64,000 bases of DNA from Escherichia coli (lineage in GTDB: Bacteria > Pseudomonadota > Gammaproteobacteria > Enterobacterales > Enterobacteriaceae), in NCBI RefSeq assembly GCF_013122565.1, contig NZ_CP053258.1. One strand, written 5' to 3'. This document shows positions 37,501 to 54,575 of this stretch, in pieces. Positions within the stretch are counted from its first letter, which is position 1, and every line of letters begins with the position of its first letter. The position numbers and the translations under genes were made by a program. The notes beneath the pieces are model-generated. The model was given only the letters and a program-made list of their open reading frames with translations. It did no database searches and had not been told where the DNA came from.

Positions 37501-39127
37501 TAGGTTTCACTTTCGGAATATAGATTGAAAATAAGGTACCGCAGGGATCATTATCTTCGAGAGTGATAACACCACCGCAGCGCGTTACGTAGCTGGCAAT
37601 CAAGTACAACCCAATGCCATGTTCACCGGGCTCGTCAGCACGCGTACTGACCCCCTGCTCAAATATTTTGTCTCGTAGAGACTCTGGAACGCCGCAGCCC
37701 TGATCGGCGACTTCAATCACCACATCATCGCCTTCATCGCTGAGGAATAATTCAACGATCTTGTTTCCTTCATCGCTACGCAGGCTGGCTTCGAAGGCGT
37801 TATCAAGTAAATTGCCCACAATGGCGGCAAACTCGGTGCTATCCAGTCCTGGCGGCAGTTGCGAAAGCTGGCTACCGGGGACGATGATCATTTTTAGCCC
37901 CAGTTCCCGGGCGCGCTGCACTTTACCAAAAAGCAGCCCCGCCACCTGGCGATCGGCAAACGCCTCGCGCAGGCTGTCAATAAGCTGTTGCTGTGCCTGA
38001 GACTCCCCCTGCACCATCGCCAGCACGCGATCATACTCTTTCATCTGCAACAGACCATTGAGCGTCGACATCCAATTGAGATGCTCGTGTCGCAATGTAC
38101 GAAGGCTCTCGACGTATTGTTTTATTTGCGTCAGTTGCGCATTGAGGGTGGAAATTTCGTCTTTACTACGAAAGCTGATAATGGCCCCCAGCAAATCATC
38201 ACCTGAACGAATAGCTTCCCGATTGGCAATAACGCTCAGACCGTTAAAGTTAGCCACCACATCCTGACGTTTTTCATCAATCTGTTCGGTAAAGAAATCG
38301 GCGGGCCTGACCACTTCAGCAATGGGTTTACCCAACCATTGCCGTCCGGGGGAACTCAGCCCCAGCATCTTTCTTGCGTTACGATTGATGGCGGTAATGT
38401 AACCGTGCGGATCCACCGCAATCAGCCCTTCATAAACCGAACTAAATAGCGCCTCTTGCTGACGGACCACGCGTGCGATTTGCTTTGGCTCCATGCCCAT
38501 CATCTGCCGACGGATATGCGCGGCCAGGAACCACGACAGCAACATCAGAATCCCTAACAGCACGACAAACACACCTGCCATTGGTAATAAAAACTCAGCC
38601 CGCCAGCTATCGATTTTACTCACCAGGTAGCCAATCGACACCACGCCGATGACTTTTCCATCGTCATCAAAAATTGGCGTTTTGGCGCGCATCGCCATGC
38701 CCATTGACCCTTTCCCGGTAATGAAGTAGCTCTCCCCTTTCTCCAGCGCGCCCTGTTTGGTGAACTGCATAGGATGACCAATTTTCTCCGGATTAGGATG
38801 GTAAAGGCGGATCGAGTGCCGGTCGCCAATCACCACATAATCAAAATCGGTATCTCTTTGTAATTTGTTAGCGATGGTCGCCAGCCGTTTGTAGTCACGC
38901 GTTTTTACTGCGCTGATGATACTGTCATTAGAAGCAATAATTTTCGCCTGATTCATTGCCATGTCGCGTACATGAAGCGTTAAATAGTCCTCAAAACTGG
39001 CCGTAAAATATTGCGCCAGGGCTGCAATGACAAATATTGAGAACACCAGAATCAGCAAAAAGATACGCAGCGGAAATGCCAGTCTTTGGAAAAATGCAAA
39101 CTGTTTATTCTCGTTAAGCTGCAACAT
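37469..39127 (-). CDS. dpiB: Sensor histidine kinase DpiB (CitA), 552 aa
   Basis: Start at internal ATG 39127; two TM segments flanking periplasmic domain; H-box (RHEHLNWMSTL) and G-box (DQGCGVP). Confidence 0.9.
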   Translation of the reverse strand: MLQLNENKQFAFFQRLAFPLRIFLLILVFSIFVIAALAQYFTASFEDYLTLHVRDMAMNQAKIIASNDSIISAVKTRDYKRLATIANKLQRDTDFDYVVIGDRHSIRLYHPNPEKIGHPMQFTKQGALEKGESYFITGKGSMGMAMRAKTPIFDDDGKVIGVVSIGYLVSKIDSWRAEFLLPMAGVFVVLLGILMLLSWFLAAHIRRQMMGMEPKQIARVVRQQEALFSSVYEGLIAVDPHGYITAINRNARKMLGLSSPGRQWLGKPIAEVVRPADFFTEQIDEKRQDVVANFNGLSVIANREAIRSGDDLLGAIISFRSKDEISTLNAQLTQIKQYVESLRTLRHEHLNWMSTLNGLLQMKEYDRVLAMVQGESQAQQQLIDSLREAFADRQVAGLLFGKVQRARELGLKMIIVPGSQLSQLPPGLDSTEFAAIVGNLLDNAFEASLRSDEGNKIVELFLSDEGDDVVIEVADQGCGVPESLRDKIFEQGVSTRADEPGEHGIGLYLIASYVTRCGGVITLEDNDPCGTLFSIYIPKVKPNDSSINPIDR

Positions 39128-39507
39128 TGTTTTCCTTGCGGGTTGTCCCGAACCTCTTTGACGGATGTAATTAAAATGTTGAATCAAAATACATAGATAT
39201 TAATTATGATCGTGGCAAATTTTATTCATTAAATCAATTAAATCACTTAAACCTGCGGGTCATTTCGCAATTACATTAATTAAAAAACTTAAAACCATTA
39301 AATAAATAAAAAACCACTAACTCTATGTGAAATAAATCAAAATTTCACGCCGAAATACTCCTTAGGATGTATAGCGAAAGGAGAAAAAGATATACCTCGA
39401 TCGCCCTCCCTTTCTCCCAAGTGAAAATAAAAGGTTATCAGTTTGCAACATTGAACAACATTCGTTGCAAATCGATAACAATATGCACCTTCAGGATACT
39501 ATTTATT
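39128..39507. promoter_or_regulatory. Divergent dpiB / citC control region (AT-rich)
   Basis: 380-bp AT-rich spacer between divergent starts; contains palindrome at 39443-39470. Confidence 0.5.
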
Positions 39508-40566
39508 ATGTTCGGCAATGATATTTTCACCCGCGTAAAACGTTCAGAAAATAAAAAAATGGCGGAAATCGCCCAATTCCTGCATGAAAATGATTTGAGC
39601 GTTGACACCACAGTCGAAGTATTTATTACCGTAACCCGCGATGAAAAGCTTATCGCGTGCGGTGGAATTGCCGGAAATATTATTAAATGCGTTGCTATCA
39701 GTGAATCCGTTCGCGGTGAAGGACTGGCGCTAACATTAGCCACTGAATTGATAAACCTCGCCTATGAGCGGCACAGCACGCATCTGTTTATTTATACCAA
39801 AACCGAATACGAGGCGCTGTTCCGCCAGTGCGGTTTTTCCACGCTGACCAGCGTACCTGGCGTGATGGTGCTGATGGAAAACAGCGCCACGCGACTGAAA
39901 CGCTATGCCGAATCGCTGAAAAAATTTCGTCATCCAGGGAACAAGATTGGCTGCATTGTGATGAACGCCAATCCCTTTACGAATGGTCACCGTTATCTGA
40001 TTCAACAGGCTGCGGCACAGTGCGACTGGTTGCATCTGTTTTTAGTCAAAGAAGATTCTTCACGCTTCCCCTATGAAGACCGGCTGGATCTGGTGTTAAA
40101 AGGCACCGCCGATATTCCACGTCTGACTGTGCATCGCGGCTCCGAATACATCATCTCCCGCGCTACGTTCCCTTGCTACTTCATTAAAGAACAGAGCGTC
40201 ATTAACCATTGTTACACCGAAATTGATCTGAAGATTTTCCGTCAGTACCTCGCTCCCGCGCTGGGTGTAACTCACCGCTTTGTCGGTACTGAACCCTTTT
40301 GTCGCGTTACCGCCCAGTACAACCAGGATATGCGCTACTGGCTGGAAACGCCGACTATCTCCGCACCGCCCATCGAACTGGTTGAAATTGAGCGGCTGCG
40401 TTACCAGGAGATGCCGATATCCGCTTCCCGGGTACGTCAACTGCTGGCGAAAAACGATCTCACGGCTATCGCGCCGCTGGTCCCTGCAGTCACGCTGCAT
40501 TATTTGCAGAACCTGCTTGAGCACTCCCGCCAGGACGCGGCAGCTCGTCAAAAGACCCCCGCATGA
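39508..40566 (+). CDS. citC: [Citrate (pro-3S)-lyase] ligase CitC, 352 aa
   Basis: Start at internal ATG 39508; N-terminal GNAT-like plus nucleotidyltransferase-like region; first gene of cit operon. Confidence 0.85.
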   Translation: MFGNDIFTRVKRSENKKMAEIAQFLHENDLSVDTTVEVFITVTRDEKLIACGGIAGNIIKCVAISESVRGEGLALTLATELINLAYERHSTHLFIYTKTEYEALFRQCGFSTLTSVPGVMVLMENSATRLKRYAESLKKFRHPGNKIGCIVMNANPFTNGHRYLIQQAAAQCDWLHLFLVKEDSSRFPYEDRLDLVLKGTADIPRLTVHRGSEYIISRATFPCYFIKEQSVINHCYTEIDLKIFRQYLAPALGVTHRFVGTEPFCRVTAQYNQDMRYWLETPTISAPPIELVEIERLRYQEMPISASRVRQLLAKNDLTAIAPLVPAVTLHYLQNLLEHSRQDAAARQKTPA

Positions 40567-52718: not shown

Positions 52719-53465
52719 ATGCTAAAAAAGTCACTTTTAATGACAATGCTACCTGCCATTGCCTTCGCAGAGGAACTTCCTGCTCCAGTAAAAGCGATTG
52801 AAAAACAGGGCATTACAATCATCAAAACGTTCGATGCCCCCGGAGGAATGAAAGGTTATCTCGGAAAGTATCAGGATATGGGCGTCACCATCTACCTGAC
52901 TCCAGATGGTAAGCACGCTATCTCTGGTTACATGTACAACGAGAAAGGTGAAAACCTGAGTAACACACTTATCGAAAAAGAAATTTACGCACCAGCCGGA
53001 CGCGAAATGTGGCAACGGATGGAACAATCCCACTGGCTCCTCGACGGTAAAAAAGACGCGCCGGTCATTGTCTACGTCTTCGCCGATCCGTTCTGCCCAT
53101 ATTGTAAACAGTTCTGGCAGCAGGCGCGCCCGTGGGTAGATTCTGGCAAAGTGCAGTTGAGAACATTGTTGGTTGGGGTTATCAAACCAGAAAGTCCGGC
53201 GACAGCCGCGGCAATTCTTGCCTCCAAAGATCCCGCAAAAACCTGGCAAGAATATGAAGCCTCTGGTGGCAAGCTTAAGCTAAACGTGCCTGCAAACGTA
53301 AGTACAGAGCAAATGAAAGTGTTAAGCGATAACGAGCAACTCATGGACGATCTGGGGGCAAATGTCACACCCGCTATCTATTACATGAGTAAGGAAAATA
53401 CGTTGCAACAAGCCGTGGGGTTGCCCGATCAGAAAACGCTTAATATCATTATGGGAAATAAATAA
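52719..53465 (+). CDS. dsbG: Periplasmic disulfide isomerase DsbG, 248 aa
   Basis: Signal peptide; CPYC thioredoxin-fold active site. Confidence 0.95.
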
Positions 53466-53477
53466 AAGATAATTCAT

Positions 53478-53513
53478 GGATGGTTGAAATATACCCCTGC
53501 TTTTCAACCATCC
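53478..53513 (+). terminator. Stem-loop 12 nt after dsbG stop
   Basis: GGATGGTTGAAA / TTTCAACCATCC perfect 12-bp stem, 12-nt loop; weak T-tract. Confidence 0.45.
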
Positions 53514-53672
53514 TTAAAACGCATGAATTGCTCGCTCTGTGCCAGATGGCTGTGCTATTTTAGAAAAACTTAATCCTGAGTTAAGCAAAAAAACATAATC
53601 AATAAAAATATATACGCAAAAACATTGATTAAGTGAATACTTCATGGAAGAAAAATATAACCGGAGTACTGT

Positions 53673-54575
53673 ATGGCCAATCTCTACGACCTGAAAAAGT
53701 TCGACTTAAATCTTCTTGTCATCTTTGAGTGCATTTATAAACACTTAAGCATAAGCAAGGCTGCTGAGTCATTATATATCACTCCATCAGCAGTGAGTCA
53801 GTCGTTACAACGCTTACGTGCGCAATTTAATGACCCTTTATTCATTCGCTCAGGAAAAGGTATCACGCCAACTACGACAGGGTTAAATTTACACAATCAC
53901 CTTGAGAAAAACCTCAGAGGTCTTGAGCAAACAATCAATCTTGTTAATAAATCGGAAGTAAAGAAAAATTTTATTATCTACGGTCCTCAGCTCATCTCCT
54001 GTTCTCATAACCGCATGCTGATCCGCTGCCTACGGCAAGATACCTCGGTCGAGATTGAGTGCCATGACACACTTATTTCAGCCGAGAATGCTGAAGAACT
54101 GTTGGTTCATCGCAAAGCCGATCTGGTGATCACTCAAATGCCAGTGATCAGTCGTTCCGTCATTTGTATGCCATTGCATACGATTCGTAATACCCTAATT
54201 TGTAGTAATAAACATCCCCGGATTACAGATACCAGTACTTACGAACAAATTATGGAAGAAGAGTTCACCCAATTAATTTCCAAATCATCGGGGCTTGATG
54301 ACATTCAAATGGAAATAGACGAGAGGTTTATAAATCGTAAAATTGCCTTTCGTGGCTCCTCTTTATTGGCGATCATAAATAGCATTGCGATTACAGATTT
54401 GCTAGGAATAGTTCCCTTTGAACTTTATGAATCCCACCAAGAATCTCTTAATTTAAAGGAAATAAAACTAGAGCACCCCCTACCCTTGGTTAAGCTTTAC
54501 ATTTGTTACAACAAGACTTCTCTAAACAACCTGGCATTCTCACGATTCATTGACAGATTGAATGATAATTCTTGA
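53673..54575 (+). CDS. ybdO: LysR-family transcriptional regulator YbdO, 300 aa
   Basis: N-terminal HTH (ISKAAESLYITPSAVSQSLQRLR); AT-rich gene. Confidence 0.85.
   Translation: MANLYDLKKFDLNLLVIFECIYKHLSISKAAESLYITPSAVSQSLQRLRAQFNDPLFIRSGKGITPTTTGLNLHNHLEKNLRGLEQTINLVNKSEVKKNFIIYGPQLISCSHNRMLIRCLRQDTSVEIECHDTLISAENAEELLVHRKADLVITQMPVISRSVICMPLHTIRNTLICSNKHPRITDTSTYEQIMEEEFTQLISKSSGLDDIQMEIDERFINRKIAFRGSSLLAIINSIAITDLLGIVPFELYESHQESLNLKEIKLEHPLPLVKLYICYNKTSLNNLAFSRFIDRLNDNS

Follow-up and report, generated by a model that had tools for sequence, protein, structure and literature searches.

A predicted stem-loop found only in Escherichia appears to overlie an older conserved block in the citC leader

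The spacer between the divergent genes dpiB and citC of Escherichia coli carries a perfect palindrome a short distance upstream of the citC start codon, which raises the question of whether this element acts as an operator in the DNA, as a structure in RNA, or not at all. The locus is a well-studied one: the citC (citrate-lyase) operon supplies a promoter used as a gut biosensor and has a central part in the Cit+ story of E. coli B. Positions 39050-39600 of the window (by which we mean the whole 64,000-nucleotide stretch analysed, from contig NZ_CP053258.1) are matched at 95-99% identity in 5419 of the 5426 complete E. coli genomes, with dpiB annotated there on the minus strand and citC on the plus strand. 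An earlier note on this DNA had described the arrangement as divergent, as the RefSeq annotation of near-identical E. coli genomes confirms, and had offered two explanations for the palindrome, namely an operator for the response regulator DpiA or a leader RNA structure. Its description of the repeat is accurate: a pattern search returns TTGCAAC (39443-39449) and GTTGCAA (39464-39470) around a 14-nt spacer with 0 mismatches, and with the citC ATG at 39508 the element does lie 38-65 nt upstream of it. The same note had seen a direct repeat, CAACATT-GAA-CAACATT, inside the spacer; both copies are present (39446-52 and 39456-62), but the first shares 4 nt with the left arm, so that the direct repeat is not wholly contained in the spacer. 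Since TTGCAA is its own reverse complement, the core inverted repeat is equally a direct repeat of TTGCAA at a distance of 22 bp.

The 7-bp core alone is no rarer than chance and represents a common kind of repeat: perfect 7-bp inverted repeats with spacers of 3-30 nt occur 232 times in the window, five of them within the 376-bp dpiB-citC spacer. A repeat search shows that the complementarity continues outward, to 16-nt arms (39434-49 and 39464-79) that pair at 14 of 16 positions (88%), and at 15 of 16 in B2-type E. coli, which carry the change G39441A. This extended 46-bp repeat is rarer than chance. Repeats of 16 nt with at least 14 of 16 positions complementary are matched six times in the 64 kb (at 5 distinct sites), against 0-1 times when the window is shuffled, and when the intergenic region is dinucleotide-shuffled, only 12 of 2000 versions reach this quality; both figures are somewhat flattering, because the arm length of 16 was picked after inspection of the data. 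The four other such sites in the window are a REP-like element, a canonical terminator hairpin, a GC-rich hairpin, and an unexplained intergenic palindrome. An origin of the palindrome from a repeat element was rejected, since the sequence is single-copy, the median E. coli genome having it in one place. The coordinates of the palindrome and of the features around it are collected in Table 1.

Table 1. Features of the dpiB-citC intergenic region and the overlapping antisense frame, in window coordinates.
Feature	Position	Strand	Sequence or remarks	Basis
A+T-rich TTAAA-type repeats	39229..39311	+	9-bp register	repeat search, conservation
CRP-like site	39326..39341 (centre 39333.5)	+	TGTGAAATAAATCAAA	site search, conservation
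NarL-like 7-2-7 site	39356..39371	+	TACTCCT-TA-GGATGTA; overlaps putative -10 TAGGAT (39363-68)	
Leader block	39421..39449	+	TGAAAAYAAAAnGTTATCAnnTTGCAAC; includes left arm	alignments
Extended imperfect inverted repeat and predicted stem-loop	39434..39479		GTTATCAGTTTGCAAC, 14-nt spacer, GTTGCAAATCGATAAC	repeat search, folding, shuffles
Core inverted repeat	39443..39470		TTGCAAC-N14-GTTGCAA; perfect 7 bp, 8 bp with flanking T/A	
Direct repeat	39446..39462	+	CAACATT-GAA-CAACATT; within conserved GCAAC-N5-RCAAC boxes, 10-bp spacing	
Right arm	39464..39479	+	complement of left arm in Escherichia only; outer GATAAC overlaps conserved box 3 (GYAACAA, 39474-81)	
citC Shine-Dalgarno sequence and start codon	39491..39495 and 39508..39510	+	CAGGA and ATG; both outside the stem-loop	
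nog1	39438..39743	-	antisense overlapping ORF, 101 codons, GTG start	ORF list; Fellner et al. 2015 (PMC4683798)

The region upstream of citC was aligned in 18 sequences (the window and 17 others) from Escherichia, Citrobacter, Salmonella, Intestinirhabdus, and an Enterobacter. Between the dpiB start codon, near 39131, and citC, the CRP-like site is identical in most of these sequences, two of them carrying one change each, and a conserved block, AAATACTCCTTA(C/G)GATGTAT at 39353-72, spans the NarL-like site and the putative -10 hexamer. The first base of this hexamer, TAGGAT, lies 29.5 bp from the centre of the CRP site, which is class II geometry; from this spacing we infer a citC transcription start at about 39375. 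The palindrome would thus lie at about +60 to +105 from a class II CRP promoter and be transcribed, within the 5' UTR of citC. The layout agrees with the regulation of citC by DpiA, CRP, and NarL described in PMC12405535. A sigma-70 promoter scan of 39050-39650 found none, and inspection by eye of the leader gave no conserved -10/-35 pair that could form a second promoter within it. A sigma-54 promoter was also set aside: the GG-N10-GC spacing fits K-12-type E. coli, but the GG is unconserved (column 20 holds G, A, C, or T). So was a longer CitC that would begin with the GTG at 39421, as in the EHEC annotation; this N-terminal extension is in frame in E. coli and C. koseri and, by a 1-nt indel, out of frame in Salmonella, and it is further disfavoured by variable sites at first and second codon positions.

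Comparison across genera separates two components within the element. The first is a block that aligns without gaps in 22 sequences from 39421 to 39481, between flanks that carry indels. Beyond the part given in Table 1 it continues as -N5-RCAACA-N15-GYAACAA, to a length of roughly 60 bp, with RCAACA exactly 10 bp after the first GCAAC and GYAACAA 20 bp further on; the spacing of these boxes is free of indels, and CAACA at 39456-60 is invariant in all 22 sequences. The block is found in Escherichia, Citrobacter, Salmonella, Intestinirhabdus, Hafnia, Buttiauxella, and Edwardsiella. Its core, GTTAT(C/T)A..TTGCAAC followed 10 bp on by RCAAC, recurs in Hafnia and Buttiauxella, and in a more diverged form in Edwardsiella, at variable distances from the ATG and the CRP site. 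With one exception (L044), it is seen only where a dpiB orthologue with 72% identity or more lies divergent. An unrelated lineage (L034/L035) carries a different perfect palindrome made from the same box, GCGTTGCAAAT-GTTATTA-ATTTGCAACGC, with a spacer of 7 nt. The block shows partial resemblance to several consensus motifs, failing at critical positions, and gave no match to a regulator. Sites for FNR, IHF, Fis, PurR, ArcA, PhoP, OmpR, TorR, and MalI-type LacI proteins, sought by eye with consensus sequences, were rejected as partial matches only, several of them varying at critical positions (the central CG of the LacI-type site, the G of the ArcA motif TGTTA); in the literature, nothing relevant was found linking citC to ArcA, Fur, Cra, or OmpR.

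The second component is the palindrome. When orthologues are folded separately, every one of the six Escherichia lineages has a significant hairpin (z between -2.0 and -5.5); in Citrobacter, Salmonella, Intestinirhabdus, and Enterobacter it is mostly non-significant, the few sequences that reach significance doing so marginally and on one strand. As judged from these alignments, the palindrome is a young, Escherichia-only stem-loop laid over an older conserved element: the CAACATT direct repeat is part of the old conserved feature, and the palindrome is a recent overlay. The left arm (GTTATCA-N2-TTGCAAC) and the CAACA box in the loop come from the older block, and it is only in Escherichia that the poorly conserved stretch to the right has become complementary to it. 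Within Escherichia, variable columns number 3 of 16 in the left arm, 6 of 16 in the right arm, and 6 of 14 in the loop, compared with 19 of 45 in the unconstrained 5' part of the leader and 5 of 58 in the CRP/-10 block. The right arm and the loop thus vary about as fast as unconstrained sequence, so that selection on pairing is weak at best. In a genome of the E. coli B lineage, the whole citC promoter and part of the left arm have been lost to IS1, the junction falling inside the palindrome.

Of the two explanations in the earlier note, the RNA structure fares better, in part. The 46-nt element lies within the putative 5' UTR and folds stably on either strand (-15.1 kcal/mol on the plus strand, -15.6 to -16.4 kcal/mol on the minus strand; z about -4.4 to -5). 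What is missing is evolutionary support for a regulatory structure. Covariation is absent across the 22 enterobacterial sequences, where 66.1% of cells pair as compared with 65.0% in shuffles, a value matched or exceeded in 115 of 500 shuffles; RNAalifold finds neither a consensus structure nor any pairs in the same alignment; and an Rfam search of 39000-39800 on both strands returns only a chance tmRNA fragment (E = 0.78). In the leader fold, the Shine-Dalgarno sequence and the AUG are free of the hairpin, the plus strand has no U-tract 3' of it, and a search for an alternative fold that would make it a switch found none. The marks of a conserved structured leader RNA, namely covariation, membership in an RNA family, and control of the Shine-Dalgarno sequence and AUG or of a downstream terminator, are therefore lacking, and a role as a leader RNA structure is plausible but weak.

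The minus strand offers a more specific role. The open reading frame at 39438-39743 on this strand is nog1, as its length and its position relative to citC match the published 306 bp and placement exactly; by the published offsets, nog1 ends 17 nt inside citC as annotated in EHEC, where the GTG at 39421 is the citC start. The palindrome takes in the final 14 codons of nog1 and the TGA stop (39440-38). For nog1, an antisense transcript whose start was placed by 5'-RACE 40 nt ahead of the GTG, promoter-GFP activity, and a predicted rho-independent terminator after the gene have been reported, as has an intact frame in Escherichia and Shigella only (PMC4683798). The distribution of the hairpin is the same as that of the intact nog1 frame. 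Read on the minus strand, the hairpin (-16.4 kcal/mol) is followed directly by C-UUUUAUUUU, with CUUUUAUUUUC as its 3' flank; the U-tract there is the plus-strand A-tract of the leader block. This U-tract is conserved in genera with neither the hairpin nor nog1, and thus exists for some other reason. The stem has G/C at only 6 of 16 positions and the loop is 14 nt long, so that the canonical geometry of a terminator, a G+C-rich stem with a loop of 3-8 nt, is not seen, and a consensus terminator scan of 39050-39650 on both strands gave no terminator-like site. Mapped RNA 3' ends for the locus were not found in the literature or in Term-seq supplements; citC and dpiB go unmentioned in the searched supplements of two Term-seq papers, in which the growth conditions may not express nog1.

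The best reading of these observations, to which we give a probability of about one in three, is a young RNA stem-loop that for nog1 would act as a weak terminator or help to form the 3' end, and in the citC leader would be a passive hairpin. If the element is active at all, it would most likely act as RNA and not as a DpiA operator. In the antisense RNA it may form a weak, non-canonical intrinsic terminator or a hairpin stabilising the 3' end at the nog1 stop codon, in which case that transcript would end before reaching the citC promoter and dpiB; in the citC mRNA it would be carried along as a hairpin in the 5' UTR that leaves the ribosome-binding site free.

Nearly as likely is that the repeat is a neutral quasi-palindrome, in which the left half is constrained as leader block and the right half either drifted into complementarity or was converted once, by a templated mutation in the Escherichia ancestor, without acquiring a selected function. 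Between the Escherichia lineages the tally of substitutions is six transitions to three transversions, as drift would give; four of these events leave a wobble pair in the minus-strand RNA, two in the plus-strand RNA, and three break the pair in both, so that there is no clear strand preference for a selected RNA. On the other hand, the sole change in an arm among sampled E. coli variants is G39441A, by which a G.U pair becomes A-U; the other polymorphisms affect the loop (at 39452 and 39463) or lie beyond the repeat (at 39482). Three to four substitutions restore Watson-Crick pairs at earlier mismatches (for example G39441A in B2-type E. coli and arm positions 7-8 in E. albertii), where fewer than one would be expected by our estimate. 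Taken together, the Escherichia substitutions fit drift, with weak selection for pairing as the most that could be added. A neutral origin further fits the variability of the right arm and loop, which within Escherichia equals that of the unconstrained flanks, the lack of covariation, the absence of the hairpin from all other genera though the regulation of citC is otherwise conserved, and the IS1 event in the B-lineage genome, which removed the promoter and part of the left arm. It fits less well with the rarity of the repeat in shuffled sequence (12 of 2000), with the persistence of a significant hairpin in all six Escherichia lineages, and with the company that the repeat keeps, since one of the four other window sites of like quality is REP-like and another is a canonical terminator.

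A third explanation moves the function from the palindrome to the DNA of the leader block. The array of GTTATCA, TTGCAAC, and CAACA boxes might be an operator in the early transcribed region for a protein other than DpiA, acting as a roadblock or looping repressor, of which Escherichia would have gained an inverted copy; we regard this as unlikely, though a real minority possibility. In its favour are the freedom of 39421-39481 from indels in 22 sequences with flanks that have them, the placement of GCAAC boxes at 0, +10, and +30 bp and thus on one helical face, the match of the block to its own opposite strand at 39464-84 with three mismatches, which in Escherichia amounts to two inverted copies, and the second perfect palindrome, GCGTTGCAAAT-N7-ATTTGCAACGC, that the lineage L034/L035 has built from the same box. 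Among known motifs, the palindrome comes closest to the operator of CytR, a LacI-family protein that works with CRP, with its TGCAA/TTGCA half-sites and flexible spacing. For CytR, the published consensus is given as TGCAA-N2-3-TTGCA, as TTGCAA (a palindrome), or as octamers arranged ..TGCAAC-N10-13-GTTRCATT; SELEX favours spacers of 10-13, and experiments show tolerance of spacing up to three helical turns, of which no natural case has been seen (PMC3454398). Compared with octamers of the GTTGCATT type, the half-sites TTTGCAAC and GTTGCAAA contain the TGCAAC/GTTGCA core exactly, but each matches at only 6 of 8 positions, and their spacer of 14 is outside the SELEX range. In addition, CytR operators sit between or beside CRP sites, while the sole CRP-like site here (39326-41) is about 123 bp upstream; the right half-site is unconserved outside Escherichia, against the high conservation in orthologues stressed in PMC3454398; and citC is unmentioned in one supplementary file of that comparative-genomics study of CytR.

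Less likely again is a post-transcriptional element of citC, in which the hairpin would present C/A-rich boxes (ACAACAU, AACAA), together with an upstream A-rich (ARN)n tract, to Hfq and an sRNA or to the ribosome, and so tune translation or mRNA stability. C/A-rich boxes upstream of ribosome-binding sites are known as enhancers and as targets of the sRNA GcvB, the element lies inside the putative 5' UTR, and the invariant CAACA box is placed in the loop. The R1 region of GcvB pairs with 39442-39474 at -23.4 kcal/mol, compared with -18.7 +/- 2.5 kcal/mol in shuffled leaders (p about 0.05); this energy is nevertheless not distinctive, ranking 408th of 1638 window tiles, and pairing of GcvB with the citC leader was dropped on that ground. 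The want of an Rfam family and of a conserved structure, and the open Shine-Dalgarno sequence and AUG, tell against this explanation as well, and a literature search found no report of sRNA control of citC.

The remaining proposal, that phosphorylated DpiA (CitB) binds the palindrome or the adjacent A-tract and thereby modulates citC, is highly improbable: the composition is wrong, the site is downstream of the putative start, a Citrobacter rodentium construct that keeps the leader does not respond to citrate, and the palindrome is absent alongside conserved dpiBA. What speaks for it is a loose likeness of the A-tract, GAAAAYAAAAY, to the (T/A)TAAAAC units of the upstream A+T-rich region, and the confinement of the leader block, L044 excepted, to loci with a divergent dpiB orthologue (at least 72% identity). 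Meyer et al. 1997 (cited in PMC2735749) describe CitB targets in their title as A+T-rich, and the 28-bp core, with a counted G+C content of 36%, is unlike the TTAAA-type 9-bp repeats at 39229-39311. Conservation of these repeats extends to Citrobacter, Salmonella, and other genera, and that of the palindrome does not; dpiB, too, lies divergent from citC in Citrobacter, Salmonella, and Intestinirhabdus, at 80-87% identity, with the hairpin mostly non-significant there. A position downstream of the putative transcription start would moreover be the wrong place for an activator. Experimental evidence comes from Citrobacter rodentium, where the "DpiA operator sites" (taken from an EcoCyc alignment) were cut from PcitC and the response to citrate was lost with the leader kept (PMC12405535). 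In window coordinates, the primer used for the truncation begins at about 39316, immediately 5' of the CRP site; as the truncated promoter with its leader is unresponsive to citrate, the DpiA sites as annotated lie upstream, in the TTAAA repeats. C. rodentium is probably without the full palindrome, so that its truncation tests the leader block and not the palindrome.

The palindrome is, in sum, an ordinary lineage-specific hairpin in a well-studied locus, partly overlapping the published work on nog1, and the main practical value of its analysis is a warning that the DpiA sites are elsewhere. If the stem-loop does end the nog1 antisense RNA, a disputed young overlapping gene gains a defined transcript, and the hairpin shows by what means an antisense unit stays separate from the citC promoter. 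The more interesting object is the conserved leader block. It could serve an as yet unassigned regulator of citrate fermentation, either as an array of operators or as a target in the RNA, and its TTGCAAC box would then have been duplicated in inverted orientation in Escherichia and, independently, in a Pluralibacter-like lineage; we consider this a doubtful possibility. Were the block regulatory, citrate fermentation would have a layer of control beyond DpiA, CRP, and NarL.

Among known systems, the element shares with the CitB/DpiA sites of E. coli citC-dpiB and Klebsiella pneumoniae citS-citC the intergenic region and the operon; those sites, however, are A+T-rich and upstream of the promoter (39229-39311 here), whereas the palindrome is downstream of the putative start, 36% G+C, and confined to one genus. 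With CytR operators it has in common the inverted TGCAAC...GTTGCA core and a centre-to-centre distance of about two helical turns, but these operators occur between -40 and -95 and are flanked by CRP, whereas the palindrome lies in the putative transcribed leader and its octamer flanks differ. The paper on nog1 (PMC4683798) covers the same DNA and contains in its text no discussion of the palindrome; under the longer EHEC annotation used there, the region is citC coding sequence, where it is leader here. To intrinsic terminators, finally, the likeness is a stable minus-strand hairpin followed by the U-tract UUUUAUUUU, and the difference an A/U-rich stem, especially at its base, a 14-nt loop, and a low folding energy per nucleotide.

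The leader of citC carries a conserved, indel-free block in which the GCAAC boxes are spaced at 0, +10 and +30 bp. Escherichia, Salmonella and Citrobacter all keep it, while Hafnia, Buttiauxella and Edwardsiella share the core; upstream of citC, the compared loci that carry the block or its core are L001-L027, L036, L044, L045, L060, L063, L065 and L066. Neither a regulator nor an RNA family was found to match the block. Immediately downstream, at position 39482, the window has T (CAATATG) vs C (CAACATG) in nearly all E. coli genomes, including K-12, and its 86-nt leader segment is matched exactly in only one of 5419 genomes.

Features of the dpiB-citC region and a further repeat in the window
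Feature	Position	Strand	Description
Second copy of TGCAACATTG	39120-39129		across the dpiB start codon
TGTAATTAAAATGTTG	39165-39180		conserved direct repeat near the dpiB promoter side
TCGTGGCAAAT	39210-39220		about 80 bp upstream of the dpiB start
Leader block	39421-39481		TGAAAAYAAAAnGTTATCAnnTTGCAAC-N5-RCAACA-N15-GYAACAA; citC leader
nog1	39438-39743	-	antisense overlap with citC
TCGTTGCAAAT	39462-39472		right arm of the palindrome
L034/L035 palindrome	about 65-95 nt upstream of citC		other genomes
Inverted repeat	53473-53518		TTCATGGATGGTTGAA-N14-TTCAACCATCCTTAAA

The open reading frame on the opposite strand is the published 101-codon gene nog1 (Fellner et al., 2015; PMC4683798). At this locus the RefSeq annotation of the sampled genomes holds only citC and dpiB, with the citC start at 39508; the last 70 nt of nog1 thus lie in the citC leader, outside citC itself.

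In two further loci, L034 and L035, from Enterobacter sp. CC120223-11 and a Pluralibacter MAG, the same TTTGCAAC box forms the basis of a different palindrome; the L034 version is a perfect repeat with 11-bp arms, GCGTTGCAAAT-GTTATTA-ATTTGCAACGC. This points to a separate origin of the symmetry around the box.

Coverage of the dpiB-citC region is incomplete in 46 of the 5419 genomes. In the LB19b genome, 233 bp of the spacer (window-equivalent 39205-39437) are replaced by an IS1A element (L087, 833-1600). The replacement removes the TTAAA (DpiA) repeats together with the CRP site and the -10 hexamer, and it also takes away the leader's first ~60 nt; its right junction falls at exactly 39438, within the left arm of the palindrome. 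One BL21(DE3) assembly, CP081489, has the identical right junction, from which we take LB19b to be a relative of E. coli B. In CP081489 the junction adjoins a collapsed ~110-bp IS1 remnant beside sgcR (L082, about 2390-2500), an arrangement that may reflect an inversion or an assembly artefact. The cit operon of these strains would be without its native promoter.

Elsewhere in the window, an inverted repeat with 16-nt arms and a 14-nt spacer, lying in the gap between one ORF ending at 53465 and another starting at 53673, looks operator-like.

On the dpiB side, TCGTGGCAAAT resembles the right arm TCGTTGCAAAT (10 of 11 positions identical, 252 bp apart); the upstream block of other genera has the sequence GATCGTTACAGATT, similar to the leader sequence AACGTTATCAGGTT. 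The likeness may reflect two related sites, or it may be chance. An exact second copy of the 10-mer TGCAACATTG, which spans part of the left arm and loop, lies 324 bp away, probably by chance. The direct repeat TGTAATTAAAATGTTG consists of two TGT(A/T)(A/G) units 11 bp apart, in what we take to be a candidate likeness to the ArcA box.
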